DNA from: Nesterenkonia sp. Act20
GTDB lineage: Bacteria; Actinomycetota; Actinomycetes; Actinomycetales; Micrococcaceae
DNA: 64,000 nucleotides
Assembly (NCBI RefSeq): GCF_019173455.1
Contig: NZ_JADPQH010000001.1
Coordinates: 1,268,391 to 1,332,390, forward strand
Direction: 5' to 3'
Part shown: positions 2,479 to 22,288 of the stretch, one piece after another
Position numbering within the stretch: the first letter of the stretch is position 1
Layout of the letters: each line of letters opens with the position of its first letter
Notes under the pieces: model-generated
Database searches by the model: none
The model's input: only the letters and a program-made list of their open reading frames with translations
Told to the model about the DNA's origin: nothing
Translations under genes and position numbers: made by a program

Positions 2479-2656
2479 TCGTCCTCCTGAAGTTGATTGA
2501 CCCCAACCTATGAAACAGATGTTTCTTCCTTCACTCGGCTCGGTTACGGATATGTAAATGCCGGAGCGCGTAACGGCGCTGTAACCCGCGCTTGCCTAAG
2601 CTGGAGCACGATTCCAGCTCATGGCCGCAGCGCCGCGCACTCCCGGAGGAGGCACC

Positions 2657-3700
2657 ATGCTCGACCGCATCACCTCCTACAGCTCCTGCCTCGACGACCC
2701 CGAACACTGGGCGATAGCAACAATCGTTTCGGTGCATGGCTCCTCGCCCAGCCCGGTGGGCACCTCGATGGCGGTCTCTGCCGACCTGGAGATCATCGGC
2801 TCACTCTCCGGGGGCTGCGTGGAGTCCTCGGTGGCCGCATCCGCCCAGGACGCGATCGCTGCCGGGACCGTCCGCCGGGAAGCCTTCGGACCCGACGGCA
2901 CCCCGTTCGGTCAGGCTGGCCTCGGAATCGCGTTGACCTGCGGCGGCGAGATCGAGGTGCTCATCCAGCCCCTGGTGACCGCCGAGCTGGATACGCTGCG
3001 TGAGCTCGCGGAGCGGGATCCACACGTTCCGGCGGAACTGACTCGGATGGTGACAGATCACGCGGGGACCCGTCTGGTCATCCGGGAACAGCGCGCCGGC
3101 TCGCCGCGGCTCATTCTCAGCGGAGTCCATGACTTCTCCACCCAGCTGGCTCAGCTCGCACTGCAGATCGGCTGGAACGTCCACCTGGTGGAGATCCGCC
3201 CCGCCTTCGGCACGCCCGAGCGCGTCCCCACCGGAGCGCAGCTGCACCTGGGACACCCCGGCACGATCATCGCCGAGCTGCTGCAGGACGAGGCCGCGGC
3301 CTGGACCGGTGTGGTCGTGATGACCCACCACCCGGATCTCGACGTCCCGGTGCTGGACGCGGCGCTGAGTCTGGCGAACCGGGCGGACTGGGTCAACGAT
3401 GCCGACGACGACGCAGCCCGCTGCTTTATCGGGGCCATGGGTTCACGCACCTCAGCGGCACGCCGAGACGCCGCACTGCGCGCCATGGGTCACAGCGAGG
3501 CCGCCCGCGAGCGCGTGGTCTCCCCGCTGGGACTGGACTTGGGCGCCGAGACGCCCGGAGAAGCGGCAGTCTCGATGCTCGCCGAGCTCCTCGCAGCGAA
3601 GAACTCCCAGACCAGTGCACAGCCGCTGAGCCTCAGCGAAGGACCGATCAATGCGTCTCGGCCGCGCAGCATCAGCATCATCAGAGAAATGGCAGTGTGA
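2657..3700 (+). CDS. xdhC: XdhC/CoxI-family molybdoenzyme maturation factor
   Basis: GGAGGAGG RBS immediately before ATG 2657 (track ORF begins earlier at 2621). N-terminal XdhC_CoxI domain and C-terminal Rossmann-like XdhC_C (AVSADLEIIGSLSGGCVE...GGEIEV...); stop 3 nt before the XDH gene. Confidence 0.75.
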   Translation: MLDRITSYSSCLDDPEHWAIATIVSVHGSSPSPVGTSMAVSADLEIIGSLSGGCVESSVAASAQDAIAAGTVRREAFGPDGTPFGQAGLGIALTCGGEIEVLIQPLVTAELDTLRELAERDPHVPAELTRMVTDHAGTRLVIREQRAGSPRLILSGVHDFSTQLAQLALQIGWNVHLVEIRPAFGTPERVPTGAQLHLGHPGTIIAELLQDEAAAWTGVVVMTHHPDLDVPVLDAALSLANRADWVNDADDDAARCFIGAMGSRTSAARRDAALRAMGHSEAARERVVSPLGLDLGAETPGEAAVSMLAELLAAKNSQTSAQPLSLSEGPINASRPRSISIIREMAV

Positions 3701-3703: not shown

Positions 3704-6700
3704 GTGGACATCACCAGTGTTGAGACGACCCTGAGCACCGCGGATCCGGAGGATTTCGAGCCCGGGGATTCCAGGCTTGCCGGAGGCACGGTGCTCTACT
3801 CCTATGGCTATGACTTCACGAACCCCGCCCCGCGCAGGCTTCTGGACATCACTGCTGCCGGGTGGGCACCCCTGACCTGGCACGAGCAGGACGCCGGTCA
3901 GGGATGGACGGGCTTGGAGATCGCCGCCACCACGACCATCGCGCAGTTCCACGCCGCCGCCTCGTCTCTGGCCGGGACCGGTGCCGAGGGGCTGCCCGGC
4001 ATCAAGCTCATGGAGGCTGCCGCAGAGTGCTTCGTAGCCTCCTGGAAGGTGTGGAACAGCTCCACCGTGGGCGGCAATGTCGCTACTGCGCTGCCGGCGG
4101 GACCGATGACCTCCTGGCTCTCCGCCATGGAGGCTCAGGCTGTGATCTTTTCCCCCGGCGGGACCCGACGTACCGCGTTGGTCTCGGATCTGGTGCTCGG
4201 CACAGGGTCCACCGCCCTGGAGTCCGGCGAATTAATCCGCGCCTTCTTCGTGCCCGTCAGCGCGCTGGCGCGCCCCACGCTGATGGTGCGGGAATCGCTG
4301 ACCCGCTACGGCCGGTCTGCCGCCCTGCTGCTCGCCTCCCCCCTCCCTGGTGGGGCCCACGGCACCGATCAGGTGCGTCTCACCATCACCGCCAGCACGG
4401 TGCATCCAGTGATCCTGCAGCTTTCCCGCGATGCTGCGGTGGACACCGGAGTGGCGGCCGCAGTGCGCGCCGGGGTCCCCGAGTCGACGTGGAATGACGA
4501 TGTCCATGGCGACCGCGAGTGGCGCATCGAGGTCACGATCCGGCTCGCGCAGGAACTTGCAGAGGCGATCTTCAGCCAGGAGCGCGCCTCTGCACTCGCG
4601 CCACAGGGTGCGGAGGCATCCTCTGCCCAGGCGGAGCTCCCCGAGCCGACTCTGCTGAGCACACATGCTGCGGCCGGGCAGCCAGCCCAGCCAGCCCAGG
4701 TCACGGTGGACGGCAGGCAGCTCGCCTTGGACGCTGATCCCGGGCAGTGCCTGCGCACCTGGCTGCGGGACACCGGCGCGGCCGGGGTCAAACGCGGTTG
4801 TGACGCCGGAGACTGTGGGGCCTGCACCGTGCATCTCGCCCAGCCCGGGCAGAAGCCGACCGCGGTGCACAGCTGCATCGTCCCGGCGCAGCGCGCCGCG
4901 GGAACCGAGGTCACCACCGTGCAGGGGCTGAGTCCGGAAGCCACCGCCCAGGTGCTGTCCTCCCAGCAGGAAGACGGTGCATCACATGATCATGAGGCGT
5001 TCGCGGCCGCCCTGCATCCGACCCAGCGGGACTTCCTCGACTCTCACGGCTTCCAGTGCGGCTACTGCACCGCTGGCTACCTGATGACCGCCACCGCGGA
5101 GAGCCCGTACTCTCCCGGGCCCTCGCCCGCTGACACCAACCCTGGAGGTCCTGCCGAGCGCGAGACCGATGAATCGACCGAGACGGCCACCGGGACGACC
5201 CTGGACGCCGAGGACCCCGCGACGCTTCGTCGATTCAAGGGCAATCTCTGCCGATGCACCGGCTACTGCTCGATCAAGGATGCGCTCACGCAGACCCCAC
5301 GGGTCAGCGCCGAATCAGGCCCCGGAAAGAGCCCGGCACCACCCGCCGGACCCGCCGTGGTCACCGGCACCGCTGCCTTCACCTTTGACCAGGCCGGCGA
5401 GCGACCCCCGGAGGATCCTCTGCACATCGTAGTGATCCGGTCCCCGCATGCCCACGCCCGGATCCAGAACATCGATGCCCGGGCAGCCCTGGACGCGCCC
5501 GGAGTGATCGCCGTGCTCACCCACGAGGACGCCCCCGCTGAGCTCTACTCCTCCGCTCAGCACGAACTGGTGGAGGATGACCCCGCGGACACCCGGGTGC
5601 TCGATGACGTGGTCCGCCACGTGGGGCAGCGGGTCGCCGTCGTCGTCGGGGAATCTCGTCGACAGGCCGAACGCGCCGCGAAGCTGGTACAGGTGGACTA
5701 CGAACCGCTTCCCGCAGTGCTGGATCCACGGACTGCACAGGACACAGGGGCCGCTGCGGTCCACGCGGGAAAGGACTCCGCCACGCACCGGATCCTCGCC
5801 CCGAAGAGGAACCTCGTGGCCGTCGCCTCCAGCTCCCACGGCCAGGCCGAGCAACAGCTCGCCTCGCTCCAGCCCTCTGAAGGCGCGGCACTGTCCACGG
5901 GTGAAACGGGCACCTCCTACACCGGCAGCTTCGAGACCCACCGGACCTCGCATGTGGCACTGGAGACCCACGGCTGCCTGGGGTGGATCGATGAGCTGGG
6001 CCGTTTCACGCTGCGTTCCTCCACGCAGGTTCCCTTCCTGGTGCGGCGCACCCTGTGTCGGATCTTCGGTCTCGCGCCGGAGGCGGTGCGCGTCTTCGCG
6101 CCGAGGGTGGGTGGGGGCTTCGGCTCCAAGCAGGAGGTGCTCACCGAGGATCTGGTGCTTCTGGTGCTGCGCACTCTGCATGAGCGCGGAATCGACCGGC
6201 CGGTGCAGCTGGAGCTCACCCGTTCGGAGGCCTTCGCAGCGACCACCACGCGTCACCCCTATCTGATCGACGTCTCGGTGGGAGCCGACGCTGAGGGCGC
6301 GCTGCAGGCCATGCAGCTGCGGGTGCTCTCCGACACCGGGGCCTACGGCAACCATGGGCCCGGGGTGATGTTCCACAGCGTGACCGAGTCCATGCAGCTC
6401 TACTCGGCCCCGCATAAGCAGGTGCACGCCGAAGTGGTCTACACCAACAATCCCCCGGCGGGCGCCTTCCGCGGCTACGGACTGAGCCAGACCCTCTTCG
6501 CGGTGGATTCGGCGATGGACGAGCTGGCCCACCGGCTGGGTCGGGATCCGCTGAGCTTCAAGGCGGCGAACATCATCGCCCAGGGTGAGACCCTCTTCGG
6601 CGCAGAACATGACGATGTGCTCGTGGAGGTGGACGGGCTGCAGCAGTGCCTGGAGATCATCGGCAAGGAGCTGCGCACCGGCGAGCTGAGTGCTGCGGAG

Positions 6701-7702
6701 CTGGCAGAGTGTGAGGGTCTGCTTGCGGAGGAGCGTCACGGTGCTCTCGAGGCAGCGCCCAGCGACGGTCCCGATGAAGCGCCCGACGGCGCGAAAGCTG
6801 GCCTTTCGCTCGGGGACTGGGCGGTGGGCACCGGCACCGCGGTGGCGATGATCGACACCGTGCCACCCAACGGGCATCATTCCCACGCCACCGTCGCCGC
6901 GCTCGGGTCCGGGCGCTACCAGCTCAAGGTCGGCACCGCGGAGTTCGGCAACGGCACCTCCACCGTGCACCGCCAGGTGGTGGCCGAGGTGCTGGGCACC
7001 ACCGCCGAGAAGATCCACCTGGTCCAGGCCGACACGGACGCCGTGCGTTTCGACACCGGCGCCTTCGGCTCCACCGGCATCACGGTCGGGGTCAAGGCAG
7101 CCCATGCCGCCGCGGAAGATCTGCTCAAAAAGCTCTCCGCCAATCCGGAGGCGGACCCCGCCGGGCTCATCGGCGAGGGCACCTGGTCCGGCACTCCCCG
7201 CTCGGTCTCGTTCAACGTGCATGGTTTCCGGATCGCGGTGGACCGGCGCAGCGGGACCCTGCGCATCCTGCAGTCGGTGCAGGCCGCCGACGCCGGCGTG
7301 GTGCTCAATGAGGCGCAGTGCCGCGGACAGGTCGAAGGCGGTGTCGCCCAGGCGCTGGGCGCGGCGATGTTCGAGGAGCTGGAGATCGATCAGGACGGCG
7401 CCGTCACCACCGACATCCTGCGCAATTACCACATACCCCAGATGGCAGACGTGCCGCGCACCGAAGTCCATTTCGCCCAGACCCGCGATCCCATCGGACC
7501 CCTGGGTGCCAAGTCGATGTCCGAGGCACCGTTCAACCCTGTCGCACCGGCGCTGGGCAATGCGATTCGCGATGCCACCGGGGTCCGCATGACGCGCACG
7601 CCCTTCCGCAAGGACCGGATCGCGGCGGCCCTGCGGAACGCGGAGCTCAGCAAGTCCGGCCTCAGCGAGGCGATCTCTCAGTCCGAGATCTCTGGAGCCT
7701 GA
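3704..7702 (+). CDS. Xanthine dehydrogenase/aldehyde oxidase-family molybdoenzyme, single 1332-aa polypeptide with FAD - [2Fe-2S] - molybdopterin domains in CoxM-CoxS-CoxL order
   Basis: GTG start. N-terminal ~300 aa CoxM-like FAD-binding domain; residues ~330-530 with two [2Fe-2S] motifs ([14 protein letters not shown]; [12 protein letters not shown] ... [11 protein letters not shown]); C-terminal ~780 aa a/b-hammerhead plus Moco-binding large-subunit fold ([17 protein letters not shown]...GGGFGSK...). Translationally adjacent to xdhC. Confidence 0.8.
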
Positions 7703-8376
7703 GCGGCGCGCCACCGCAGCAGGTCCTCAGGCGTGTCGATGTCGGCGGCTTCGGCGCAGTCGGTGAGGTCGATGGCGTCGAGGAGCTCGGGATGGTCGCG
7801 CAGATACGCCCGGGCACCCTCGTCCTGCTGCGCGGCGGCTGCGGCGTCGAGAGCGGCGCGGATCTCGAAGACCACGGGGTGCGTGGGGCGTCCCTGAACC
7901 ACACCGCGCGCAACGCGACCGGGACGGTGCGCGTCGAGGACCCTGCGCAGCGCCTCCGCCCCGATGCCCGGCTGGTCCACCAGAACGACGGCGACCCGGT
8001 CAGCCCGGCGGTCACGGGCAGCCTGGATTCCAGTGCGGAAGGACGCCGAGAGCCCTCGATGCCAGTTCGGGCAGACCACGACCTCCGGGGCTATGGCAGA
8101 CGCTTCGCCCAGCGCTACCGCTTCGTCCAACACTGCGAGGGCCTCCTCGGCGCGGTGGCCCAGCACCAGCAGCGGGACAGTTCCTGCATCCGTCGCCGCC
8201 TGCACCGCGCGCTGCATCAGCGTTCTGCCGTGCACACTCACCAGTGCCTTACCTCGAGAACCGAGCCTGCTTCCCTCCCCTGCGGCGAGGATCACCGTCA
8301 CCGTCCTCAGGGGTTCGGGGTCGGGCCCCAGGGCAGCCGGGCGCGGCACGAGCTGCTGTGGACCCGTCACTGCCAT
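7678..8376 (-). CDS. mocA: MocA-like molybdenum cofactor cytidylyltransferase (MobA-like NTP transferase)
   Basis: Start at internal ATG (rc 8374-8376) of track ORF 7678..8484. [15 protein letters not shown] ... VLVDQP motifs of the MobA/MocA nucleotidyltransferase fold; consistent with MCD-type Moco required by CoxL-type enzymes. Confidence 0.65.
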
Positions 8377-8389
8377 CTTGCACCCTCGC

Positions 8390-8662
8390 TCAGGCGCGCT
8401 CGTTGGCGGCTTGACCCAGCGCGATGAGCTTCTCTCCCAGACCGTAGCTGCGGTCGGCGAGCTGGCGGACATAGCCCTTGGCAATCATGGTGCGCAGCAG
8501 CCTGTGCGCGGTCGGCGCGGGAAGATGAGTCTGTTCTGCCAGTTCGCTGAGGCTCATCTGGCCACCGTGGGCACCGATGGCTTCGAGGATGTCGAACGCC
8601 CGGTCCACTGACTGCACCTTGCGTGGTCCCTCGGTCATGAGCCGCTCCTTGTCATCGGTCAT
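8390..8662 (-). CDS. IclR-family HTH domain-only protein (90 aa; truncated regulator or remnant)
   Basis: SLSELAEQTHLPAPTAHRLLRTMIAKGYV is a canonical IclR N-terminal wHTH; ORF stops at the linker helix with no effector domain; 13 nt gap to mocA. Confidence 0.5.
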   Translation of the reverse strand: MTDDKERLMTEGPRKVQSVDRAFDILEAIGAHGGQMSLSELAEQTHLPAPTAHRLLRTMIAKGYVRQLADRSYGLGEKLIALGQAANERA

Positions 8663-8667: not shown

Positions 8668-10101
8668 TCAGCGCTTCATCACGCTGAGCGCAGGGTGGCC
8701 GGTGCCGCGGAGGAACTGTCCCACAGGGGCCAGTGCAGTGGTCGTGTCCCGGGCGGTGAACAGCTCGATGCCGCGCAGCACAGCTCCGATCACGGTGCCG
8801 GTGATCTCGAGATGCTCATAGGCAGAGATCGGATTCTTGTGCGCCAGTCCCACGGCGGAGACCACATTGGTCTCCAGCGGGTCATAGATCACCAGGTCCG
8901 CATCCTTACCCGTGGCGATGGTCCCCTTGCGAGTCAGCCCGGCCAGGGTGGAGGTGTTCTGGGCCATCCACCTGCTGACCTGCTCAAGTCCTATTCCACG
9001 CAGCCGAGCTTCATGGGCCACGGCGGAGAATCCCACCTGCAGCCCGGATATCCCGCCCCATGCCTGCTGCAGGTCAGGGGCTCCGCGGTGCTTCTCCTCG
9101 ATCGTGGAGGGCGAATGATCGCTGACCACCGCGTCGATGAGCCCCTCGCGCAGTCCCTCCCAGAGCGCCTCCCGGTTGCCGGTGTCGCGGATCGGCGGGC
9201 AGCATTTGAACTCGGCGGCCCCATCCGGGATCGAGTCGGCGTCGAAGCAGAGGTAATGAGGGCAGGTCTCTACAGAGAGCGGCAGACCTTCAGCGCGGGC
9301 CGCGCCAATGATGTCCAGAGCACGGGCGGAGGCCAGGTGCAGGATATGTGTCCGGCAGCCCGTCTCGCGGACGGCTTCGATGAGATCGCTGATCGCTGCC
9401 ACTTCGGCATCATGCGGGCGGGTGAGCGCCCAGTCCGCGTAGTGGCTGAGCCGGCGTCGTCGGCCGGTGACCTCGGTGGCACGTTCGATCGTCTCGGCAT
9501 CTTCTGCGTGGACGATCACCAGACCGTCGAATCCGGCCACTTCGGCCATCGCCTCGCGCAGCTGCTCGCCGTTCACCGGTGGGAACTCATCCACCCCGGA
9601 GGGCAGCAGGAAGCATTTGAACCCGAAGGCACCGGCTTCCCAGAGGGGCCTGAGCTGGGCGGTGTTGCCGGGGATGATCCCTCCCCAGAAGCCGACGTCC
9701 ACATAGGTCTGGCCCGCAGCGGCCTGCTGCTTGATCCGCAGCGACTCCACATCCACCGTGGGCGGGATGGAATTCAACGGCATGTCCACCACGGTGGTGA
9801 CCCCGCCCAGTGCCGCCGCCATGGTGCCGGTGGCGAAGCCCTCCCAGCTGGTGCGGCCGGGCTCGTTGATGTGGACGTGGGTGTCGACGTTGCCCGGGAG
9901 CACCTGGTGGGCGGGCCTGACCACGGTCATCCCGGCGCCGGCGCCGACGTCGCTGGCTTTAACGATCTCGGCCCGCCGCCGACCTTCGCCCGGGCTCAGC
10001 CGATGGATCCGGGCGATCTCACCGTCGAGGATCTCCAGGTGCGCGGGAAGGAACTCTCCTTCGAGCAGCACCTGCTCGGCGATGAGGTGTCGCAGCGTCA
10101 A
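8668..10101 (-). CDS. allB: Allantoinase (cyclic amidohydrolase)
   Basis: Track ORF 8668..11100 is an over-extension; probable TTG start at rc 10099-10101 overlapping the permease stop (TTGA). 478 aa; DTHVHINEPGRT metal motif, carbamylated-Lys region FKCFL, dihydroorotase/allantoinase fold. Confidence 0.75.
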   Translation of the reverse strand: MTLRHLIAEQVLLEGEFLPAHLEILDGEIARIHRLSPGEGRRRAEIVKASDVGAGAGMTVVRPAHQVLPGNVDTHVHINEPGRTSWEGFATGTMAAALGGVTTVVDMPLNSIPPTVDVESLRIKQQAAAGQTYVDVGFWGGIIPGNTAQLRPLWEAGAFGFKCFLLPSGVDEFPPVNGEQLREAMAEVAGFDGLVIVHAEDAETIERATEVTGRRRRLSHYADWALTRPHDAEVAAISDLIEAVRETGCRTHILHLASARALDIIGAARAEGLPLSVETCPHYLCFDADSIPDGAAEFKCCPPIRDTGNREALWEGLREGLIDAVVSDHSPSTIEEKHRGAPDLQQAWGGISGLQVGFSAVAHEARLRGIGLEQVSRWMAQNTSTLAGLTRKGTIATGKDADLVIYDPLETNVVSAVGLAHKNPISAYEHLEITGTVIGAVLRGIELFTARDTTTALAPVGQFLRGTGHPALSVMKR

Positions 10102-11588
10102 CGTTCTGCCTCCTTCTCGGCGAGGGTCTCGGCCCCAAGGGCGGGGGCAACGTCTGTGGTCGGTCCAGCCGTTCCCGGCATCTCCGCTCCGACTTCGGCG
10201 ACCTTCGGGGTGGTAGGGAGCACGGCGTTCAGGAGGACGGCGGCGAGCATGGCCGGCACGATGCCCGAGGTGAGCAGGAGCGCGATGTCCGGGTGGAAGG
10301 CGGCCGTGACCTCCTCGGAGGCGAAGGAGAATCCGATGCCCAGGCCCAGCGAGACGGCGACGATCAGCATGGCCCGGCGGTCGAGGACTTGGCTGCTGAC
10401 CACCTGGATCCCTGCGGAGGCCACCATGGAGAACATCACCAGCACCGCTCCGCCGAGCACGGCGTAGGGGATGGTGCTGAAGAAGGCCGCGAACTTCGGC
10501 ACGAACCCTGCCAGAAGCAGCATGCCCCCGGCCATGGCGACCACGAAGCGGCTCACGACGCCGCTGAGCACGACCACGCCGGTGTTCTGGCTGAAGGTCG
10601 TGTTGGGCATCGCACCGAAGAGCGCTCCCAGCGAAGTGCCCACCCCATCCGCCATGACGCCTCCGCTGAGCTGGCGGGAGGTGGGTGATGCCCCGACGGC
10701 GGTCCGGGAGACGGCGGTGAGATCTCCGATGGACTCCATCGAGCTGGCCAGCGCGATGACGGTGATCGCAATGATGGCGGCTCCGGTGAAGTCCATGCCG
10801 AAGTGCAGCGGGGTCGGGGCGAAGAACCAGTCCGCCTCGGCCACGGCGGCGAGGCTGACCATGCCGAAGGCTGCCGCCACGGCGTAGCCGGTGAGCAGAC
10901 CGATCAGCACTGAGGCCACGGAGAGGAAGCCCTTGCCGAACTGGTTGCACAGCACGGTCACCACGACCACCAGGGCTGCGATGCCGAAGTGGAACAGCGC
11001 CCCATAGTCCCCGGCGCTCTGCGCCGGGGCACCGCCTGCGGCGTAGTCGATGGCGGTGGGCATGAGCTTGATGCCGATGATCAGGATGATGATGCCGCAC
11101 ACCAGGGGCGGAAAGAGCCGTGAGATCCAGTGCAGGGCACCGCCGAAGATCACCTGCACGAAGCCTGCGACGAAGGCGCCGCCGAAGACCGCCGCGATGC
11201 CGAACTCCTGAGCGATGGGAATCGCCACCGCCAGGAACGCGAAGCTGGTGCCCTGCATGACGGGCAGCCGAGATCCCACGGGCCCCAGACCCAACGTCTG
11301 CAGCAGCGTGGTCACACCCGAGACGATCATGGCCAGCTGCACCAGCAGCGTGGTCTCCCCGGTGGTCATCCCGATGGCGGTGGCCACGATCAGGGGAGGC
11401 GCCGCATTGCCGACGAACATGGCCAGCAGATGCTGGACCGCCAGCGGAGCTGCGCGGTGCAGCGGGGGCAGCTCATTGACCCGGGCGACCGCCTCGGCCG
11501 CAGTGACCTGCGAAGCAGTCGCGCCGCCGTGGGTCGAGCCCTCGGCCGTATCCGTGGTGTGAGGGGAGGCAGTGGTCTCGGCAGGCAT
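10098..11588 (-). CDS. Nucleobase:cation symporter-2 (NCS2) permease, xanthine/uric acid type
   Basis: 496 aa, ~12-14 predicted TM helices, NCS2 signature regions (VLGGAVLVMF..., QNTGVVVLSGV). Confidence 0.8.
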   Translation of the reverse strand: MPAETTASPHTTDTAEGSTHGGATASQVTAAEAVARVNELPPLHRAAPLAVQHLLAMFVGNAAPPLIVATAIGMTTGETTLLVQLAMIVSGVTTLLQTLGLGPVGSRLPVMQGTSFAFLAVAIPIAQEFGIAAVFGGAFVAGFVQVIFGGALHWISRLFPPLVCGIIILIIGIKLMPTAIDYAAGGAPAQSAGDYGALFHFGIAALVVVVTVLCNQFGKGFLSVASVLIGLLTGYAVAAAFGMVSLAAVAEADWFFAPTPLHFGMDFTGAAIIAITVIALASSMESIGDLTAVSRTAVGASPTSRQLSGGVMADGVGTSLGALFGAMPNTTFSQNTGVVVLSGVVSRFVVAMAGGMLLLAGFVPKFAAFFSTIPYAVLGGAVLVMFSMVASAGIQVVSSQVLDRRAMLIVAVSLGLGIGFSFASEEVTAAFHPDIALLLTSGIVPAMLAAVLLNAVLPTTPKVAEVGAEMPGTAGPTTDVAPALGAETLAEKEAER

Positions 11589-11729
11589 AGGAGCAACTTC
11601 CTGTCACGGTGATGAACCGGCTTGTCTCCTACACGCTATGAGTCCGGTGTTAGGGCCGTGTTTCCACACGATTACCGCCGTAAGAAACATGCGTTCCGTA
11701 TTTCACGCCTATCGGAACGCAGGTTTCAC

Positions 11730-12656
11730 TCAGGCGAAGCCGCCGATCCATTCCCAGGCCTGCGGTCGCGCAGGCGCTGCCCTGCGGGTGACGGAGGCGT
11801 TCATCAGACCGTAGGGGCGGTCCCCCGCCTGGAAGACCTCATTGGGGTTCTCCAGACCGAAGGGACTCAGGTCCACCACATAGTGATGATTGTTCGGCAT
11901 CACGAACCGGATGTCCTCGATCTCCTCCACTGCACCGAGCACGGCCTCGCCTGCGGCGTAGAGCGTCTGCTGCAGGGACAGCGAGTGGACCAGCGCGAAC
12001 TGCTCCATCACGATCTGCTTGACGCGCGCGTAGAGGGCGTCGAAGTCGACCTCCTGTGCGTCGATATCTGCGGCGAAGAGCCAGCGGGCGGTGATGTCCG
12101 TGGCCATCACCCGGTCCCGGGTCTCGGGCAGCGTGGTGTACCGGTCCTTCGGATACCCGGAGAACTCGCTGCCGGTGGTCTTGAGGACGGTGAGGTCGCT
12201 GAATCCGCCCATCAGGTGCTCGTCACCATCCTGGATGGTCAGCGCCGCGGTGCGGATCTCCTGCTTGGACTTCACGAAGGAGTGCTCGTGTTCGGTGAGC
12301 GCACCATCGGACCCCGGGACCTGGATCCGTTCCCAGGGGTAGGACTCAGCACTCCAGCGGCCGCCGTCGACCTCGGCATACTCGACGAAGTGGCGTCCGA
12401 GCAGCAGCAGGAACTGCTCCGGGGTGCTGATCCCGTGCTCCTTGGCGAAGGCGTAGACGGTGTTCTTCTGGGTATCGGTGGCGATGACCCTGCTGTTGTC
12501 ACCCTCGGTGTAGCAGTCGGTGAAGTCTCCACGCAGCATCGAGCTGACGTTGAGATCCATGAGCGTGTGGACCGGGGTGTCCCGGTTCACCCGGACCACG
12601 CGCACCTCGGCCTTCCCGTACTGGTTGGGGCCAAGGACGACGTCGGGACTGCTCAT
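11730..12656 (-). CDS. Urate oxidase (uricase)
   Basis: 308 aa; YGKAEVRVVRV and TQKNTVYAFAK motifs of factor-independent uricase (tunnel-fold). Confidence 0.85.
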   Translation of the reverse strand: MSSPDVVLGPNQYGKAEVRVVRVNRDTPVHTLMDLNVSSMLRGDFTDCYTEGDNSRVIATDTQKNTVYAFAKEHGISTPEQFLLLLGRHFVEYAEVDGGRWSAESYPWERIQVPGSDGALTEHEHSFVKSKQEIRTAALTIQDGDEHLMGGFSDLTVLKTTGSEFSGYPKDRYTTLPETRDRVMATDITARWLFAADIDAQEVDFDALYARVKQIVMEQFALVHSLSLQQTLYAAGEAVLGAVEEIEDIRFVMPNNHHYVVDLSPFGLENPNEVFQAGDRPYGLMNASVTRRAAPARPQAWEWIGGFA

Positions 12657-12756: not shown

Positions 12757-13083
12757 TCAGCTGCCCCGGTAGGTGCTGTAGGCGAAGGGGCTCAGCAGCA
12801 GGGGCACGTGATAATGCGCAGCCGAGGCCTCCACAGCGAAGGTCAGCGTGACCTCAGGGAAGAAGTGATCCACCGCGCGGGACGCGAAGTACTCTCCGGT
12901 GCCGAAGACGAGCCGGTGCGCACCTTCGGGCAGCGTCTCGGGTCCCAGCTCCGTGATGCGACCATCGGCGTCGGTGGTTCCGGAGGCGATCTGCGCCCCC
13001 TCGGGCCCCAGCAGCTGCACGGTGATTCCTCGTGCCGGAGTCCCGGTGGTGGTGTCCAGGACATGGGTGGTGATGAGACTCAT
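12757..13083 (-). CDS. 5-hydroxyisourate hydrolase (transthyretin-like)
   Basis: 108 aa from internal ATG of track ORF 12757..13179; MSLITTHVLDTTTG... and C-terminal YRGS tetrapeptide diagnostic of HIUase. Confidence 0.85.
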   Translation of the reverse strand: MSLITTHVLDTTTGTPARGITVQLLGPEGAQIASGTTDADGRITELGPETLPEGAHRLVFGTGEYFASRAVDHFFPEVTLTFAVEASAAHYHVPLLLSPFAYSTYRGS

Positions 13084-13111: not shown

Positions 13112-13999
13112 TCAGCGTTCGAGCTCGTCGAGTTCGTCGTAGGCTTTCGCGATGGCGGAGATGCGCTTCCGGCCAGCACCGAGCTGCCGGTTGAGCACCC
13201 CGTTGGCGAGCAGACTGACCAGGGTCATCGCCGCCGCGTAGCTGTCGAAGGCACCTTCCGAGTCGATGGGGCATTCGATCCAGCAGTCGGCCTCCATGGC
13301 GTAGTGCCGGGAGGTGCTGTCGCCCAGGCAGAGGAGCTGGGCTTCGGAGGACGCCACCGCCCGGACCGCCTTGCCGAAGACCACGGGACGACGGCGGAAG
13401 CCCACCGCCACCACCAGATCCCCGGCTCCGATGCCGGCGAGCTCCTCGCCCAGGGTCTGACCGGGCTGGGGTGCGATCCGCACCCTGGGCCGGGTCTGGA
13501 TGAGCTGCTGGTGCAGATGAAGCGCCACCGGGTAGCTGTTGCGCAGCCCGAGCAGGATCACCCGTTCGGCGCTCGCGAGCATCTCCACCGCCTGTTGAAG
13601 CCTGCCATCGGCCAAGCCTGCGGTCAGCCGCGCGAGGTTATCGTGGTCGCGCGCCTCGTGACGCTGCATTCCGGTGGAGCCTTCGGTGTCGGCGGAGGTC
13701 ACCGGCGCAGCTGTGGGGACTCCTCGGCTGCGCAGCGCGCGAGCGTGATCTTTGACCTCGCGGAAGTCCTCGAAGTCGAGCTTGCGGAACAGCCGAGATA
13801 CCGTGGCCTTCGAGACGCCCGTCTCGCGACTGATATCTGCTGCGGAGAAGATGGCCAGGTCGCCCAAATGCTCCAGCAGGAAGTCAGCCACTCGCCGCTC
13901 CTGCGGGGCCAGCGCCCCGTAGTGGGCGTCGATCCGGGCGTCGATGCGCGTCTCGGGTTCGAGCGGGGGCTGGTTCGCGGCCTCCGGTGGCGGGGTCAT
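13112..13999 (-). CDS. RpiR/MurR-family transcriptional regulator (HTH_6 + SIS domain)
   Basis: 295 aa; N-terminal HTH (AADISRETGVSKATVSRLFRKLDF), C-terminal SIS sugar-phosphate-binding domain; ATGA overlap with upstream allC. Confidence 0.75.
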   Translation of the reverse strand: MTPPPEAANQPPLEPETRIDARIDAHYGALAPQERRVADFLLEHLGDLAIFSAADISRETGVSKATVSRLFRKLDFEDFREVKDHARALRSRGVPTAAPVTSADTEGSTGMQRHEARDHDNLARLTAGLADGRLQQAVEMLASAERVILLGLRNSYPVALHLHQQLIQTRPRVRIAPQPGQTLGEELAGIGAGDLVVAVGFRRRPVVFGKAVRAVASSEAQLLCLGDSTSRHYAMEADCWIECPIDSEGAFDSYAAAMTLVSLLANGVLNRQLGAGRKRISAIAKAYDELDELER

Positions 14000-15249
14000 C
14001 GTCCTGCTCGCTCTCCGTGCTCACGTGCAAGCACCCAGACAGCTTCTTGCAGCGCCTGCAGAGCCAATGCCACATCGGCGGAGATGACGTTCTCCTCCGG
14101 GTGGTGGCTGATGCCGTCCTCGCAGCGGGTGAAGAGCATGCCGATCTCCGTCACCGCCGCCATCGCCATGGCGTCGTGCCCAGCACGCGAGTACAGGGTG
14201 ATCGGGTCGGCGTCCCCGGTGGCGGCCACGCCGGCCGCGAGCGCTCGCGTCATCCGCGGCGAGCAGCCCACGGTGGACGCGGCGTGGATCTCTTCGACCA
14301 CCAGCTCCAAGCTGCGCTGGGCGCAGAACCGGCTCAGCGCAGCGTGGATCTCCTGCCAGGCGGTGTCACGGAGCTCATCAGATTCGGCGCGCAGGTCCAG
14401 GGAGAAGTCGGCCTCTCCCGGCACGACGTTCACCGCACCGGGACGGGTCTCCAGCTGACCGACCGTGGCGATAACACCGCGCTCACGGCCGATCCGTTCC
14501 ACGTCCAGGACTGCCTGAGCGGCCCCGACCAGTGCGTCCCGCCGGCGTTCATAGGGGGTGCCCCCGGCATGCCGGGCCTCACCGAGGATGGCGAGCCGAA
14601 AGCGGCGCGCCCCGGCGATGGAGCTGACCAGCCCCAAGGCCCGATCGGCCGCTTCGAGAGAGGGGCCCTGCTCGATATGGGCTTCGAGGTAGCCGACCAG
14701 ATCCTCAGGCGCCCGGGCGGCGTCGTCGACCTTCTCTGGATCCAGGCCGAAGTCCCAGAAGGCCTGAGCCATGCTGATCCCCTCGGCGTCCACGGCCTCC
14801 CACCAGGCGGGGTCCCAGGTGCCCGCCATGGCACGTGATCCCAGCAGGGTCGCGCCGAACCGGGTGCCCTCCTCATCGGCGAAGGCGATGATCTCCACGG
14901 CGAAGGGAAGGTCCTTCGCGTAGGGGGCCAGCAGACGGACCGTCTCGATTCCCAGCAGCACACCCATGATGCCGTCATAGCGTCCGGCATCGGGAACGGT
15001 GTCGAGGTGGGAGGCGATGATCAGCGCCGGCAGGCCGGGCTCGCGACCCTCGAGCCGAGCACACTGGTTGCCTGCGGCGTCCTGCCAGGTCTCCATCCCC
15101 ACCTCGGCCATCCACGCCGCGGCGAGTGCATTGTGCCGCTGGTGCTCTTCGGTCAGGTAGGCGCGCAGGATCCCGTCGGGGAGAGCGCTGATCGCGGCAA
15201 GCTCGTCACAGCGGGTCATGATGCGGTCGGCCGCAGCGTCGAGGGTCAC
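13996..15249 (-). CDS. allC: Allantoate amidohydrolase (M20 family, AllC-like)
   Basis: 417 aa M20/M28 peptidase-like with dimerisation insert; strongest resemblance to allantoate amidohydrolase/N-carbamoyl-amino-acid hydrolases; context. Confidence 0.7.
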   Translation of the reverse strand: MTLDAAADRIMTRCDELAAISALPDGILRAYLTEEHQRHNALAAAWMAEVGMETWQDAAGNQCARLEGREPGLPALIIASHLDTVPDAGRYDGIMGVLLGIETVRLLAPYAKDLPFAVEIIAFADEEGTRFGATLLGSRAMAGTWDPAWWEAVDAEGISMAQAFWDFGLDPEKVDDAARAPEDLVGYLEAHIEQGPSLEAADRALGLVSSIAGARRFRLAILGEARHAGGTPYERRRDALVGAAQAVLDVERIGRERGVIATVGQLETRPGAVNVVPGEADFSLDLRAESDELRDTAWQEIHAALSRFCAQRSLELVVEEIHAASTVGCSPRMTRALAAGVAATGDADPITLYSRAGHDAMAMAAVTEIGMLFTRCEDGISHHPEENVISADVALALQALQEAVWVLAREHGERAGR

Positions 15250-16613
15250 GGGGAGACCTCCCGAGACTCCAGGGGCCGATCGAACTGCCCAGGCTGGTGG
15301 AGCTGGTCGGACTGACCGGGCTGCCCGGGCTGGTCGAGCTGGTCGAGCTGGTCGAGCTGGTCGAGCTGCCCCGCCTGCCCGCGAGTCGACTGTTCCTGGT
15401 AGATCTCTGCCGCGGCTCCGGTGCCGCCGCCGGCGCGGACCTCAGCGCCACCAGCGCGCAACACCTGTTCCAGCGCCGCGAGGGTGAGCATCACGGCGTC
15501 CTTGCGGGCGTTATAGCCCATGGTGCCGATGCGCCAGACCTTCCCGTGCAGCGGCCCGAAGCTGGTGCCGATCTCGATGCCGTAGTCCTGGAGCATGGCC
15601 GAACGGGCGGCGTCGCCATCGATCCCTGCAGGGATCTCCACGGCGACCACGTTGTTCATCTTGTGCGTGACGTCCCCGAAGACCGCCAGCCCGAGCCCCC
15701 GGACTCCCGCCAGCATGGCCTGGCCATGGAGCTCATGACGGGCGACGGCGGCGTCGATCCCCTCGTCCAGCAGCAGTCGAGCACATTCACGCGCCCCGTA
15801 GAGCATGGAGGTTGCCTCGGTGTGGTGGTTCAGCCGCTGGGGGCCCCAGTAGTCCATGATCATCGCCAGATCGAAGTAGTTCGAGGCGATTCTGGTGCCG
15901 CGGCCTGCAGTGCCGTCGGCGATGCCTGCCTCGACATGCCGACGAGAACGGATGACGTCCACGGCGCGCGGGGAGAGGGTGATCGGCGCCGAACCAGAGG
16001 GTCCCCCGAGGCATTTCTGCAGTCCGGCCGTGACAGCGTCGATCTTCCATGCATCGGCGGAGAACTCATTGCCTGCCAGAGAGGCCGTCACGTCGGTGTA
16101 GAACAGCACGTCGTGGCGCTGGCAGATCTCACCGATGCCGGCGAGCGGCTGATTCATCGTGGTGGAGGTGTCCCCCTGGACGAGAGCAAGCAGCGTGGGC
16201 CGCTCCTCGATGATGGCCGCCTCGATCTCCTCTGGCGTGAAGACCTGGCCCCAGGTCTTCTCGCGGACCGCGACCTCAGCTCCGGCGCGCACGGCGATCT
16301 CGGCGAGCAGGTGACCGAACCGTCCGAAGATCGGCACGAGCACCTTCGAACCGGGCTCGATCAGCGAGACCAGAGCCGCTTCGATGCCGGCCCGGGAAGT
16401 GCCGTCCACCAGGAACGTCGCCTCGTTGTTGGTCTTGAAGACTCCGCGGTAGAGCTCCATGACCTCGTTCATATAACCGGTCATCGCGGGATCATATTGG
16501 CCCACGAGCTGAGCCGACATGGCACGCAGCACGCGCGGATCGGCGTTGATCGGGCCCGGCCCCATGAGCAGCCGGGGTGGCGGATTGATCTGGCGGGAGC
16601 TCATGAGGACCAT
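15246..16613 (-). CDS. Class V (PLP) aminotransferase, PucG-like (S)-ureidoglycine-glyoxylate / alanine-glyoxylate aminotransferase, with repetitive (QLD)n/(PGQ)n C-terminal tail
   Basis: 455 aa; AGT-family fold (SRQINPPPRLLMGPGPIN... , lysine region GLQKCLGGPSG); C-terminal ~55 aa low-complexity tail encoded by a 9-bp tandem array. Confidence 0.7.
   Translation of the reverse strand: MVLMSSRQINPPPRLLMGPGPINADPRVLRAMSAQLVGQYDPAMTGYMNEVMELYRGVFKTNNEATFLVDGTSRAGIEAALVSLIEPGSKVLVPIFGRFGHLLAEIAVRAGAEVAVREKTWGQVFTPEEIEAAIIEERPTLLALVQGDTSTTMNQPLAGIGEICQRHDVLFYTDVTASLAGNEFSADAWKIDAVTAGLQKCLGGPSGSAPITLSPRAVDVIRSRRHVEAGIADGTAGRGTRIASNYFDLAMIMDYWGPQRLNHHTEATSMLYGARECARLLLDEGIDAAVARHELHGQAMLAGVRGLGLAVFGDVTHKMNNVVAVEIPAGIDGDAARSAMLQDYGIEIGTSFGPLHGKVWRIGTMGYNARKDAVMLTLAALEQVLRAGGAEVRAGGGTGAAAEIYQEQSTRGQAGQLDQLDQLDQLDQPGQPGQSDQLHQPGQFDRPLESREVSP
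15294..15383. repeat. 9-bp tandem repeat array (ctgNNcNNN x10; four perfect ctggtcgag copies at 15330-15365) inside the aminotransferase 3' end
   Basis: Read directly: ctggtggag ctggtcgga ctgaccggg ctgcccggg (ctggtcgag)x4 ctgccccgc ctgcccgcg; in-frame, encodes ...QLDQLDQLDQLDQPGQPGQ... Confidence 0.9.
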
Positions 16614-16656
16614 GCTACTGAAACTATTGTTTCATTCGTGAAACAGGTGCGTATCG

Positions 16657-17151
16657 TCATGAGACGACCTGCTCCAGTCGCAGCACTGCGATCTCGGCGA
16701 GCTGCTCGCGTCGGACGACGGCCTCTTCCTCCTCGGTGTTCTGCAGGCGAAGTTCGAGCTGGGTGCGCATCTCACGGTCTGATCGGCCTGCGGCGCGGAT
16801 CAGGAAGATCCGGTCGAAGCGCTGTTCGTAGGCCTCATTGGCGCTGATCCACTCCGCCTGGGCGGTCTCATCGGCGCCGAGGCTTCCCTGTTCTCGTCGG
16901 GAGGCCTCGGCTTCCCGGGAGGAGCCCTGCACCTTCTCTCCGATCCGCGGGTGATGTTCGAGCGCGCCGTCGACCTCGAGGTCGGTCCAGTCCTGTGCGA
17001 GCTCCGCGGCGGTGGTGGTCAGCTCCGCGACGCTCTCGTAGGGCCTCCGGGCGAGGAGCGCGGCGCGCCAGGAGGGAATGGGCGCGCAGGCGGCGAGCGT
17101 CTCCGTCAGCTCCTCCGGGGTGGCCGCATTGAATTCGCTGAGCTTCATCAT
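16657..17151 (-). CDS. uraD: OHCU decarboxylase (2-oxo-4-hydroxy-4-carboxy-5-ureidoimidazoline decarboxylase)
   Basis: 164 aa (MMKLSEFNAATPEELTETLAACAPIPSW...HPRIGE...); lies in the C-terminal part of the artefactual 618-aa track ORF 16657..18513; ATGA overlap with the amidase stop. Confidence 0.75.
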   Translation of the reverse strand: MMKLSEFNAATPEELTETLAACAPIPSWRAALLARRPYESVAELTTTAAELAQDWTDLEVDGALEHHPRIGEKVQGSSREAEASRREQGSLGADETAQAEWISANEAYEQRFDRIFLIRAAGRSDREMRTQLELRLQNTEEEEAVVRREQLAEIAVLRLEQVVS

Positions 17152-18395
17152 CGGATCTCCTGTGTCGACGGCAGCCGGGCGTGGAACTCCTGCGCCCAGC
17201 GGATGAGTGCACGGTCGCTCCCGGCAGCCCCGAGCAGGCAGACGCCGGTGGGAAGTCCCGCTGCCGTGCGCAGCGGGACATTGACCGCGGGCAGCCCGGC
17301 CAGACCGGCCAGGCAGGTGAGCATCATGGTGCCGCGGCGGTGTTCCTCGATGACTTCTCCGCCCAGTGCGGCCTCGCTGCGCAGCGGTGCGGGACCGGCC
17401 GCCGAGGGAAGCGCCAGCACGGAATCGCCGACCCAGTCGCGGATGATTCGGCGTGCCCCGGCGGCCAGCGCCCGGGCCTGCCGCTCCTGATCTGCGGTGA
17501 ACTGGCGGGCCGTGCGGAACCGCGCGCCGACGTCGTCGGCCATCGCCTCCCAGTGGGTGCTGACCCATTCGCCGTGGTTGGCCCAGGCCTCGCGCATCTG
17601 GATGATGCGGAAGGCCTCGAACCAGGCGGCGTGCATCTCCGGGGAGACGCCGGCGATCCGCCTCAGGTGCAGGCGTGGTGGCAGGGCGCTCGGAGGCGCG
17701 GTCACACCGTCCACGGCGGTGCGCACGGCGTCGGCGACCTCCGGCTCCACCTGATCGAAGAGGCCGGGGAGGAGCGTGAGCTCTTCCGGGAGTGCGGCGG
17801 GCTGCTCCGTCTCCGCGCCGGCGGGCAGGAGCACCTCGGCCACGAGGCTCAGCGTCGCGGCGTCGCGGGTCATCCAGCCCACCGCGTCGAAGCTCTGCGC
17901 AAGTGGCAGCAGACCCTCGCGGGAGATGGCGCCGTGGGTGCTGCGTATGCCCCAGAGCCCCTGGTAGGAGGCGGGCACGCGGATCGACCCACCGGTGTCG
18001 GTTCCCAGCCCGATGCTCACCTGACCCAGTGCGACGGCGGCGGCGGAGCCCGAGCTGGACCCCCCGCTGATCCGGTCGGGGGCCGCCGGGTTCGGCGGTG
18101 TCCCGTAGTGCTGATTGGTTCCGGCCAGGGAGAGTGCGAACTCGTCGGTCTGCGCGATCCCGGTGATCGCGGCGCCTGCCTCGAGCAGCTGTCTCACGGG
18201 GGGCGCGGTGCTGGTCTGCTCGGGGGCCTCGGCCAGCCAGGCGGGGTTGCCGGCACCGATGCTGTGTCCCGCAATCGCGTAGAGGTCCTTGACGGCGACG
18301 TTCTGCCCGCCCAGCGGTCCGGTTCCGGAAGACGGGATCAGCGGGGCATCGGGGTCCCCACCCACCCGCCAGATCGTGGGCTCTGCTGTGCTCAT
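17148..18395 (-). CDS. Amidase-signature (AS) family amidase
   Basis: 415 aa with GGSSSGSAAAVA AS-signature and catalytic Ser-cisSer-Lys context (KDLYAIAG). Confidence 0.7.
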   Translation of the reverse strand: MSTAEPTIWRVGGDPDAPLIPSSGTGPLGGQNVAVKDLYAIAGHSIGAGNPAWLAEAPEQTSTAPPVRQLLEAGAAITGIAQTDEFALSLAGTNQHYGTPPNPAAPDRISGGSSSGSAAAVALGQVSIGLGTDTGGSIRVPASYQGLWGIRSTHGAISREGLLPLAQSFDAVGWMTRDAATLSLVAEVLLPAGAETEQPAALPEELTLLPGLFDQVEPEVADAVRTAVDGVTAPPSALPPRLHLRRIAGVSPEMHAAWFEAFRIIQMREAWANHGEWVSTHWEAMADDVGARFRTARQFTADQERQARALAAGARRIIRDWVGDSVLALPSAAGPAPLRSEAALGGEVIEEHRRGTMMLTCLAGLAGLPAVNVPLRTAAGLPTGVCLLGAAGSDRALIRWAQEFHARLPSTQEIR

Positions 18396-19486
18396 CGCAG
18401 CTCCGCGAAGTCTCGGACGGCCACCCGCGCGTGGACTCCTTTGACCAGGTCGACCACCTGGGAGATGTTGAAGTCCGTGGCCGCGGAGAGATAGGCGTAG
18501 GCATGCTCTGCATCGAGGCCCCAGCGGGCCTGCAGCAGCACGATCGCGTTGCGCACGCAGTTCTGCACGGCGATGTCCAGGTCCTCGTCCATCCCGGTGG
18601 GGATGAGGAACTCCGCGGTCTCGGCCAGCGGCCCGATCTGTTCGCCGAAGGCGGCCAAGGCCTGTTCCCGAGGGATGACCTCGAAGCTCAGCAGCCCGCG
18701 CAGGGAGGCCTCCATCGCGGTGAGCGCGACCTCGCCGTCGCCCTGGGCGAAGTGGGGATCGCCCACGTAGGCCAGCGCGCCGGGCACCTGCACGGGCAGG
18801 TAGAGCGAAGTTCCCTCGGTGAGCATCTTGATGTCGATATTGCCGCCGTGGGCCCCCGGCGGCACGGAATGGGGACGGGCCTCCCCCGCTACCGCCACCC
18901 CGATGGTCCCGAAGAAGGGAGCCAGCTCGAAGCTCAGCAGCCTCTCCGCTCCGGTGCGCGGGGCCATACGGCCGCGAGCCTGACCCTGACCGGCCTCTTC
19001 CACGGCGGCGAAGATCGAGACGTTGCGTTCTCCGCGCGGGTACTCCCCGTTGAGCGCTCCCTTGCCGTGGCGGTTGGAGATGATGCCGTAGGGGACGCGG
19101 CGCTGCAGCTGCTTGATGGTCACCTTGAGCAGGTCGCCCGGCATGGCGCCCTCGACATGGAGGGGGCCGGTGTTCACGTGCGGGCCGTCGACGGCGGGGT
19201 CTCGCGGGTGGTCGCTTGCTGCGAGCGCGATCGCGTCGGTGAGCACCTGATCCTCGGGCACGCCGTGTCCGCCGAAATAGGCCAGCGGGTCCCGTCCCTG
19301 ATCCTCGAGAATGCCCTCATGAGAGAGTGTGTCGATGACGACCTGCTCACCGGACTCGATGTGCAGCGCCGGCTCATCGGCGGCGCAGGGCAGCCTCCCC
19401 CAGAAGATGTTCTCCGGGCGCGCCGGGAGGTAGCGGGCACCCTCGGGCAGGTGTTCGCCGGGCTGCAGGATGGGCTGCGGGCTCAT
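18392..19486 (-). CDS. Acetamidase/formamidase (FmdA/AmdA)-family hydrolase; first gene of the long minus-strand operon
   Basis: 364 aa; FmdA_AmdA fold motifs (HGGNIDIKMLTEGTSLYLPV, GDPHFAQGDGE); ATGA overlap with amidase start. Confidence 0.7.
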   Translation of the reverse strand: MSPQPILQPGEHLPEGARYLPARPENIFWGRLPCAADEPALHIESGEQVVIDTLSHEGILEDQGRDPLAYFGGHGVPEDQVLTDAIALAASDHPRDPAVDGPHVNTGPLHVEGAMPGDLLKVTIKQLQRRVPYGIISNRHGKGALNGEYPRGERNVSIFAAVEEAGQGQARGRMAPRTGAERLLSFELAPFFGTIGVAVAGEARPHSVPPGAHGGNIDIKMLTEGTSLYLPVQVPGALAYVGDPHFAQGDGEVALTAMEASLRGLLSFEVIPREQALAAFGEQIGPLAETAEFLIPTGMDEDLDIAVQNCVRNAIVLLQARWGLDAEHAYAYLSAATDFNISQVVDLVKGVHARVAVRDFAELR

Positions 19487-19560
19487 GGATCACTCTCCTC
19501 GTTCCGATCAGTCTGCCCGATCAGGTGTTACAGCAGAGTGACATCTCTGGAATGTCCGTT

Positions 19561-22134: not shown

Positions 22135-22288
22135 GGAACTGCTCCGTTCAATGCGGTCCTTGGGGCTGAGCCGCGCGTGAACGTCGCTGCCGGTCAGAGG
22201 AGCTCCGGCGTTGAATCCTGTACGGCCCCGTCCTGAGGACTGGGTTTAAGGGCCCGCACTGGTGTGTGGCCCGCGCTTGCCACGTCGA

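Follow-up and report, generated by a model that had tools for sequence, protein, structure and literature searches.

The Purine-Catabolism Cluster and Its Recurrent Dyad

The 64,000-nucleotide stretch of Nesterenkonia sp. Act20 analyzed here (contig NZ_JADPQH010000001.1; hereafter the window) carries a Nesterenkonia purine-catabolism cluster, and an inverted repeat of the form GAAAC-N4-GTTTC, referred to here as the dyad, recurs in four gaps that all head or separate operons of this cluster. The gene map was drawn from Pfam and NCBIfam matches (Table 1), and the best protein matches for the cluster were Nesterenkonia proteins of 88–92% identity. A gene for an RpiR-family regulator adjoins the aminotransferase and allantoate amidohydrolase genes (13996–16613, minus strand), with which it is read as co-transcribed; the class-V aminotransferase is presumably HpxJ/PucG-like. 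Between the allantoinase and MocA/PucB-like genes lies an open reading frame for a protein consisting of an IclR-type helix-turn-helix (HTH) only, kept in Nesterenkonia purine clusters as proteins of 85–107 amino acids; with it, the cluster would encode two regulators. The remaining genes of the window are unrelated to purines, phenylacetate catabolism genes among them.

An initial annotation had proposed that the motif recurs at the promoter regions of the purine cluster, at four sites in AT-richer stretches, and this was borne out. Exact dyads occur twice in 64 kb (site 1, 2512–2525, and site 2, 16620–16633), against 0.00 expected from 100 dinucleotide-preserving shuffles. Matches with at most two mismatches numbered 13 in the window, compared with 9.4 expected by shuffling, and this excess was not significant. 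Chance origin is rejected for the exact and one-mismatch sites. The window counts of two-mismatch matches are at background, and the weak fourth site GGAATGTCCGTTTC (site 4) therefore cannot stand on its sequence alone; it is rescued by orthology, as it aligns with perfect dyads in two relatives. The two-mismatch matches at 3560, 13812, 15458, 22366, 31146, 57878 and 61442 were set aside as noise, their class being at background. The match at 22366 falls within a SAM-IV riboswitch, which accounts for it, and that at 31146 precedes an SPFH-domain gene of unrelated function.

With a scoring matrix built from the actinobacterial sites described below (symmetrised consensus t-GAAAC-r-n-n-y-GTTTC-a), the seven best matches in the window all fell at 2.5–19.6 kb, within the 17-kb purine cluster, and none in the remaining 44 kb of the window. 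The four site-bearing gaps have a G+C content of 0.42–0.54, compared with 66.5% for the whole window, in agreement with the AT-richness first noted. The gene contexts originally given for the sites (deaminase/xdhC, aminotransferase, uricase-permease, and the head of an operon) were correct, as were the coordinates of the first three, GAAACAGATGTTTC, GAAACTATTGTTTC and GAAACATGCGTTCC. The fourth site is real, but its position is 19549–19562, 10 nt away from the 19539–19552 first reported. Two one-mismatch dyads had gone unnamed, GGAACGCAGGTTTC in the uricase-permease gap and GCAACAATCGTTTC inside xdhC. Each of the four sites of the window has orthologues in further Nesterenkonia species.

Table 1. 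Genes, dyads and associated elements of the purine-catabolism cluster and its flank, in window coordinates.
Feature	Position	Strand	Remarks
NMT1-type binding protein	1–1068	−	
Amidohydrolase named 8-oxoguanine deaminase by sources	1069–2478	−	528.7 bits, just under the cut-off of 532
−10-like hexamer TAGGTT (TAnnnT)	2505–2510	−	1 nt past site 1 on the deaminase strand
Site 1, GAAACAGATGTTTC	2512–2525		Perfect dyad; divergent deaminase/xdhC gap; matrix score 28.3, window maximum
GlnR-form repeat GTTAC-n6-GTAAA	2543–2558	+	
GlnR-form repeat GTAAC-n6-GTAAC	2570–2585	+	11 nt before −10-like TAAGCT (2597–2602)
XdhC	2657–3700	+	
Possible fifth site, GCAACAATCGTTTC	2717–2730		1 mismatch; xdhC codons 21–25 (start 2657); score 17.5; 205 bp from site 1
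Single-chain xanthine dehydrogenase	3704–7702	+	
MocA/PucB-like protein	7678–8484	−	
IclR-type HTH-only protein	8390–8662	−	90 aa
Allantoinase	8668–10101	−	
Purine permease	10098–11588	−	
GlnR-form repeat GTAAT-n6-GAAAC-n6-CTAAC	11675–11649	−	10 nt before −10-like TAGCGT (11633–11638)
Site 3a, GAAACATGCGTTCC	11684–11697		1 mismatch; uricase-permease gap; score 21.0
Site 3b, GGAACGCAGGTTTC	11714–11727		1 mismatch; 30 bp from site 3a
Uricase	11730–12656	−	
HIU hydrolase	about 12757–13083	−	
RpiR-family regulator	13112–13999	−	HTH_6 + SIS, 295 aa; Pfam
Allantoate amidohydrolase	13996–15249	−	Pfam; NCBIfam NF006775, 530 bits vs cut-off 479
Class-V aminotransferase	15246–16604/16613	−	Pfam
−10-like hexamer TAGCAT	16612–16617	−	2 nt past site 2 on the gene strand
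Site 2, GAAACTATTGTTTC	16620–16633		Perfect dyad; 43-bp gap upstream of class-V aminotransferase
Extra GAAAC (GTTTC on the gene strand)	16640–16644		6 nt upstream of site 2
OHCU decarboxylase	16657 to about 17150	−	
Amidase	17148–18395	−	
FmdA/AmdA-family protein	18392–19486	−	First gene of its operon
Site 4, GGAATGTCCGTTTC	19549–19562		2 mismatches; upstream of FmdA-like/amidase/OHCU decarboxylase operon; score 17.7
metX	19561–20667		Beyond the purine cluster, behind the SAM-IV riboswitch
metY	20683–22134		Beyond the purine cluster, behind the SAM-IV riboswitch
SAM-IV riboswitch	22268–22397	−	97 bits vs gathering score 38; upstream of metY-metX operon

The Dyad Accompanies RpiR Genes in Two Phyla

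For a comparison across genomes, 80 loci were chosen solely by homology to the RpiR protein, from Actinobacteria (Micrococcaceae, Microbacteriaceae, Nocardioides, Aeromicrobium and Brachybacterium) and, in many cases, Gammaproteobacteria (including Klebsiella, Enterobacter, Pantoea, Serratia, Carnimonas, Kushneria and Alteromonas); six more loci, all from Nesterenkonia, brought the set to 86 loci and 1.70 Mb. In nearly all of the 80 loci, and in both phyla, the RpiR gene occurs together with aminotransferase and allantoate amidohydrolase genes. An exact dyad was present in 21 of them and a copy with at most one mismatch in 77. Across the 86 loci, exact dyads numbered 33 (0.7 expected) and two-mismatch dyads 427 (380 expected). 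One-mismatch dyads numbered 173 (24 expected), a count that is slightly inflated because the enterobacterial ATGAAACTTAAGTTGC, about 1.2–1.7 kb past the RpiR start, reads as a gene start (MKLKLQ...) and probably reflects coding conservation rather than an operator. A site was found at −3.0 to +1.6 kb of the RpiR start in 58 of the 66 loci with full flanks, and the outer flanks were at background.

The position of the dyad tracks the operon of the regulator, and not one fixed gene, whatever the neighboring genes are. Microbacteriaceae and Nesterenkonia have it ahead of the aminotransferase gene, Nocardioides ahead of the OHCU decarboxylase gene, and enterobacteria just upstream of the RpiR gene itself and in the gap just downstream. 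In Nesterenkonia sp. NBAIMH1, the RpiR gene stands apart from the cluster and yet is preceded, at a distance of 28 nt, by a perfect dyad; further copies are found at the HIU hydrolase gene and in the xdh-deaminase gap. An unbiased count of 5-N(0–10)-5 palindromes in the 220 bp around the aminotransferase start also ranked GAAAC-N4-GTTTC first; it was exact in 15 of 73 loci and in none of the coding controls.

These comparisons support the original suggestion of one shared operator through which the RpiR protein encoded in the cluster coordinates its operons, since loci of two phyla that were chosen by RpiR homology alone carry the dyad next to the regulator gene. The dyads are most probably operators of this regulator, an actinobacterial homologue of the HpxU type. 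The small IclR-type protein, which carries an HTH of a family whose members commonly bind palindromes and is kept in Nesterenkonia purine clusters, could in principle bind them in place of RpiR; we give this little credence. A homologue of it was found in 7 of the 86 loci, essentially only in Nesterenkonia, whereas dyads adjoin the RpiR gene in Microbacteriaceae, Nocardioides, Brachybacterium and Gammaproteobacteria, and 77 of the 80 RpiR loci carry a copy with no more than one mismatch. On this co-occurrence the IclR-type protein was rejected as the binder, as it cannot explain the pattern across phyla.

Two loci that contain an orthologue of the deaminase and have no RpiR gene within 10 kb, from Georgenia and Streptomyces, contained neither an exact nor a one-mismatch dyad across the 21 kb of each. 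Upstream of the deaminase gene, these two loci share another, conserved element, GGTGACGATCCGG...CCCGGGACAGGG (Georgenia, L091, about 9880–9960; Streptomyces, L092, about 9810–9860), which may be a different cis-regulatory element for this gene. In neither locus did any match reach an Rfam gathering score, and a more permissive scan of the sequence upstream of the gene in L092 was equally empty.

Promoter Context of Sites 1 and 2

We propose that site 2 is the promoter operator of an operon running from the aminotransferase through allantoate amidohydrolase, RpiR and HIU hydrolase to uricase; since the RpiR gene lies in this operon, the regulator would control its own gene. The site is well conserved: wherever the other Nesterenkonia loci contain the aminotransferase gene, which is the case in six, a perfect dyad precedes it, and most other actinobacterial loci show a site with at most one mismatch at the equivalent place. 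The −10-like hexamer TAGCAT that follows site 2 has TAnnAT equivalents (TACGAT, TACCAT, TAGGAT and TATGAT) in L002 and L081–L086, and contains the ATG at 16613 that heads the long aminotransferase open reading frame. Because a start point about 7 nt downstream of TAGCAT coincides with the in-frame ATG at 16604, the aminotransferase mRNA is probably leaderless; in L081, the called aminotransferase start lies 7 nt past the end of the hexamer. An extra half-site had also been noted near site 2, and corresponds to the GAAAC at 16640–16644. It is kept as tGTTTCAt in L002, L081, L082, L084 and L086, and could serve as an auxiliary half-site or else belong to a −35-like element, TTCACG. The sequences to be compared with the HpxU operator pattern (below) are TGAAACTATTGTTTCA at site 2 and TGAAACAGATGTTTCT at site 1.

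Site 1 is the proposed operator at the promoter of the minus-strand deaminase operon. Its dyad is perfect in 7 of 7 aligned Nesterenkonia sequences, with variation confined to the N4 spacer, and in the TAnnnT hexamer that follows it the TA and the last T are invariant across the alignment. A Shine-Dalgarno sequence AGGAGG (2483–2488) and the ATG at 2478 follow downstream of TAGGTT. On the other side of the gap, the strong Shine-Dalgarno sequence GGAGGAGG, 5 nt upstream, and agreement with the called starts in three relatives indicate that xdhC probably starts at the ATG at 2657 rather than at 2621, giving a divergent gap of 178 bp. This gap (2479–2656, aligned with L088 9823–10000) is 97% identical to that of N. 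halotolerans, compared with 82–88% for the adjacent coding DNA, which points either to strong regulatory constraint or to a recombination patch. A search of the gap for RNA families gave no match.

The arrangement at these two promoters recurs among the actinobacterial sites. A TAnnnT sequence starts 1–2 nt past the motif in 34 of 82 unique actinobacterial sites (background, 0.0007 per position), so that the dyad would occupy the promoter spacer and adjoin the −10-like hexamer on its upstream side, as sites 1 and 2 of the window do. This is a typical position for repression, and bears on whether RpiR would bind the dyads as an activator instead. Some RpiR-family members are activators (GlvR and GlaR are listed as such), and sites 3 and 4 lie upstream of likely core promoters, a position compatible with activation; the abutting hexamers speak against it, as does the homologue HpxU, named as a repressor in PMC11014249. 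Activation as the general mode of action is improbable. From position, it is unlikely at sites 1 and 2, and possible at sites 3 and 4.

The one-mismatch dyad inside xdhC is spelled in rare codons (GCA, 11% of Ala codons; ACA, 3% of Thr codons; GTT, 2% of Val codons) and is retained in three close relatives (L087–L089). The intragenic dyad is missing from N. muleiensis and N. alkaliphila (L084 and L086), which encode ATVVS in common codons where the window encodes ATIVS, and which have instead an intergenic dyad with one mismatch, placed towards xdh. The rare codons and the relocated dyad suggest DNA-level selection and a relocated xdh operator 205 bp from site 1, an indication that we treat as a lead. 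The xanthine dehydrogenase of the window is one polypeptide of 1332 amino acids with FAD, 2Fe-2S and molybdopterin domains, and its tblastn matches in several other loci are split into two or three stretches. In N. halotolerans (L088), a further perfect dyad (20590–20603) and a one-mismatch dyad (20701–20714) lie between the genes for adenosine deaminase and a second NMT1-type transporter, which suggests that the regulon may extend to nucleoside salvage genes in some species.

Paired Sites in the Uricase-Permease Gap and a Decayed Site 4

Sites 3a and 3b are both kept in L002 and L081, the two examined relatives with the permease gene, and jointly form an inverted repeat with 15-nt arms right after the uricase stop codon. 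Their distance recurs elsewhere: among the 61 site pairs lying within 120 bp of each other in all loci, 29 were spaced at 29–31 bp, with a peak at 30 bp, and such pairs were seen in actinobacteria and enterobacteria as well as in the window. About 30 bp corresponds to about three helical turns, a spacing that would fit a dimer of dimers on two dyads.

The position of this pair raises an alternative in which the repeats act at the RNA level, as hairpins or terminators, with the site 3 pair terminating the uricase operon. On the minus strand, 11670–11735 can form a 14-pair hairpin just after the uricase stop (−24.8 kcal/mol, z = −3.9), followed by UUUCUUAC. A single dyad, by comparison, gives a stem of 5 bp only; a terminator scan of 11400–11900 returned 0 terminator-like sites; and in L002 and L081 the half-sites are kept while the N4 spacers do not stay complementary. 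Pairs with the 30-bp spacing also occur, in several families, ahead of the aminotransferase gene and in the gap that follows the RpiR gene of enterobacteria, and sites 1 and 2 lie upstream of the inferred transcription starts. An RNA-level role for the dyads is thus very improbable. An intrinsic terminator would show a GC-rich stem with a short loop and then a run of U; the hairpin of the site 3 pair is stable but has a 14-nt loop and no U-run, which does not support this reading. A secondary terminator role at site 3 is possible.

Several extra half-sites had been reported around site 3, and they are present, although some of them belong to separate, conserved direct repeats that resemble GlnR boxes. 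GlnR boxes have the form gTnAc-n6-GaAAc or GTnAC-n6-GTnAC, with GAAAC as the b-site (PMC10704036). They are direct repeats with an 11-bp period; like the window motif, they contain the pentamer GAAAC and are linked to nitrogen metabolism. Both pentamers of the dyads, GAAAC and GTTTC, might then themselves be GlnR boxes serving global nitrogen control, the more so as direct repeats of GlnR form stand nearby (2543–2558, 2570–2585 and 11649–11675). Yet GlnR boxes are direct repeats with a 6-nt spacer, while the arms of the window motif are inverted and 4 nt apart, and the dyad is also kept in Gammaproteobacteria, whereas GlnR is described as actinobacterial. Its repeat geometry does not agree with the definition of a GlnR box, on which ground GlnR was rejected as the dyad binder, a reading that we regard as extremely improbable. 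The GlnR-form repeats, whose key bases are invariant across the Nesterenkonia alignments, are separate elements that flank sites 1 and 3. Through them, as possible activator sites, xdhC-xdh and the permease operon may be subject to nitrogen control, and their placement beside the dyads points to dual control by pathway and nitrogen status.

Site 4 can be aligned in every column with two perfect dyads, GAAACAGCTGTTTC (L002, 4262) and GAAACAGCGGTTTC (L081, 4331), the relatives with perfect dyads at this place being Nesterenkonia sp. E16_10 and sp. CF4.4. From this alignment, the window version appears as a decayed operator copy that has lost one half-site.

Relation to the HpxU System

The best matches of the window RpiR protein are Nesterenkonia proteins with 92% and 90% identity. 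Its full-length identity to the RpiR protein of Klebsiella pneumoniae ATCC 13883 (L041) is 39% (E = 1e-74), and the sequence GVSKATVSRLF is common to the HTH regions of both. We take the Klebsiella protein to be HpxU, by gene order rather than by an accession match; NCBIfam has no HpxU-specific model. Its gene lies between an upstream divergent operon and downstream genes for an ABC transporter, an aminotransferase and an amidohydrolase, and related dyads (TGAACGTTTCGTTTCA, TGAAACGAAAGTTACA and AGAACCTTTTGTTTCA) are found in both gaps flanking it. The HpxU operator is reportedly TGAA-N8-TTCA and its inducer is said to be allantoate. The window consensus tGAAAC-N4-GTTTCa matches this reported operator pattern; a literature search for TGAA-N8-TTCA found no paper.

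The two proteins are thus alike in architecture (HTH_6 and SIS domains, which place the window protein in the RpiR family together with the homologue that we equate with HpxU) and in their neighbors, genes for an aminotransferase (HpxJ-like, for ureidoglycine) and an allantoate amidohydrolase (HpxK-like); the three genes are adjacent in the window, and the same trio is present in most of the 80 loci. They also share an inverted-repeat operator at promoters that include that of the regulator's own operon, as far as the reported HpxU consensus allows the comparison. HpxU appears in PMC11014249, citing Guzman et al. (2013, Int Microbiol 16:165), as the RpiR-type repressor of allantoate catabolism in K. 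pneumoniae. It is the homology to the L041 protein, the dyads at the Klebsiella locus and the co-occurrence across phyla that lead us to read the window dyads as operators of the HpxU type.

The window system differs from that of HpxU in its actinobacterial host and in its perfect dyads, enterobacterial copies usually having one weaker half. Its regulon would also be wider, adding the deaminase and ABC transporter genes, uricase, HIU hydrolase, OHCU decarboxylase, the purine permease, allantoinase and possibly xdhC-xdh. In Klebsiella, those added functions are under other regulators, HpxR and HpxS.

Within the wider family, HexR, MurR and RccR share palindromic operators and domain architecture with the window RpiR. 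The window protein scores far below the cut-offs of the HexR and MurR/RpiR models of NCBIfam (39–51 bits vs 296–355), and its effector would be a ureide, as opposed to a phosphosugar. The HexR operator is TGTA-N-TACA-like, unlike the window motif. Tetramers of RpiR/MurR-family proteins bind paired operators. The logic of RpiR/MurR-family repressors, as outlined in PMC11014249, is that of a repressor released by a metabolite.

Proposed Regulation and Implications

Under the proposed mechanism, an RpiR dimer would occupy each 14-bp dyad, and pairs spaced by about 30 bp, such as 11684 and 11714, would probably be bridged by a tetramer seated on a single side of the helix. In the case of sites 1 and 2, where the dyad occupies the spacer directly upstream of the −10-like TAnnnT, the bound protein would block RNA polymerase, and at site 2, which would govern the operon containing the RpiR gene, the outcome would be negative autoregulation. 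Binding of a pathway intermediate to the SIS domain would release RpiR, so that the genes for the deaminase, for the steps from urate to allantoin, for allantoin and allantoate breakdown and for transport would be turned on together; the operons coordinated in this way would be those of the deaminase, urate-to-allantoin conversion, allantoin/allantoate breakdown, the permease and the amidase. The releasing intermediate is presumably allantoate, by analogy with Klebsiella.

Several observations weigh against this reading. Since the loci compared are phylogenetically related, independent events are fewer than the raw counts suggest. Only two negative controls, from Georgenia and Streptomyces, were included, and a regulator could sit elsewhere in those genomes. 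Site 1 lies about 80 bp upstream of the likely xdhC promoter, and direct control of xdhC-xdh from it is uncertain. Sites 3a, 3b and 4 are away from −10-like hexamers, roughly 55–85 bp upstream of likely promoters, which is less typical for simple occlusion, and site 4, with its two mismatches, may no longer bind.

A more far-reaching version of the RpiR model, which we consider doubtful as a whole, would see in RpiR and its 14-bp dyad an ancient module of Actinobacteria and Gammaproteobacteria with 30-bp operator pairs, which in Nesterenkonia would have become a master switch for the whole route from purines to ammonia, including the deaminase and xanthine dehydrogenase. An intragenic operator in xdhC, held in place by rare codons, would loop over 205 bp to site 1, and a GlnR-like activator layer would add dual control by pathway and nitrogen status.

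A palindromic operator of a pathway-specific repressor of the RpiR type is known from the HpxU system, and as such the one proposed here is fairly ordinary and leaves the understanding of this class of regulators unchanged. Its presence in Actinobacteria, its conservation across phyla and the wider regulon suggested for it appear to be new against the literature searched, in which we found no regulator of purine or urate catabolism described for Micrococcaceae, Microbacteriaceae or Nocardioides; searches for an RpiR-type purine regulator in actinobacteria likewise returned nothing relevant. The RpiR dyads offer a concrete regulon model for purine and urate catabolism in these three groups, and an operator of an RpiR-type ureide regulator that is conserved across phyla would be useful for regulon annotation and for the design of urate- or allantoate-responsive biosensors.

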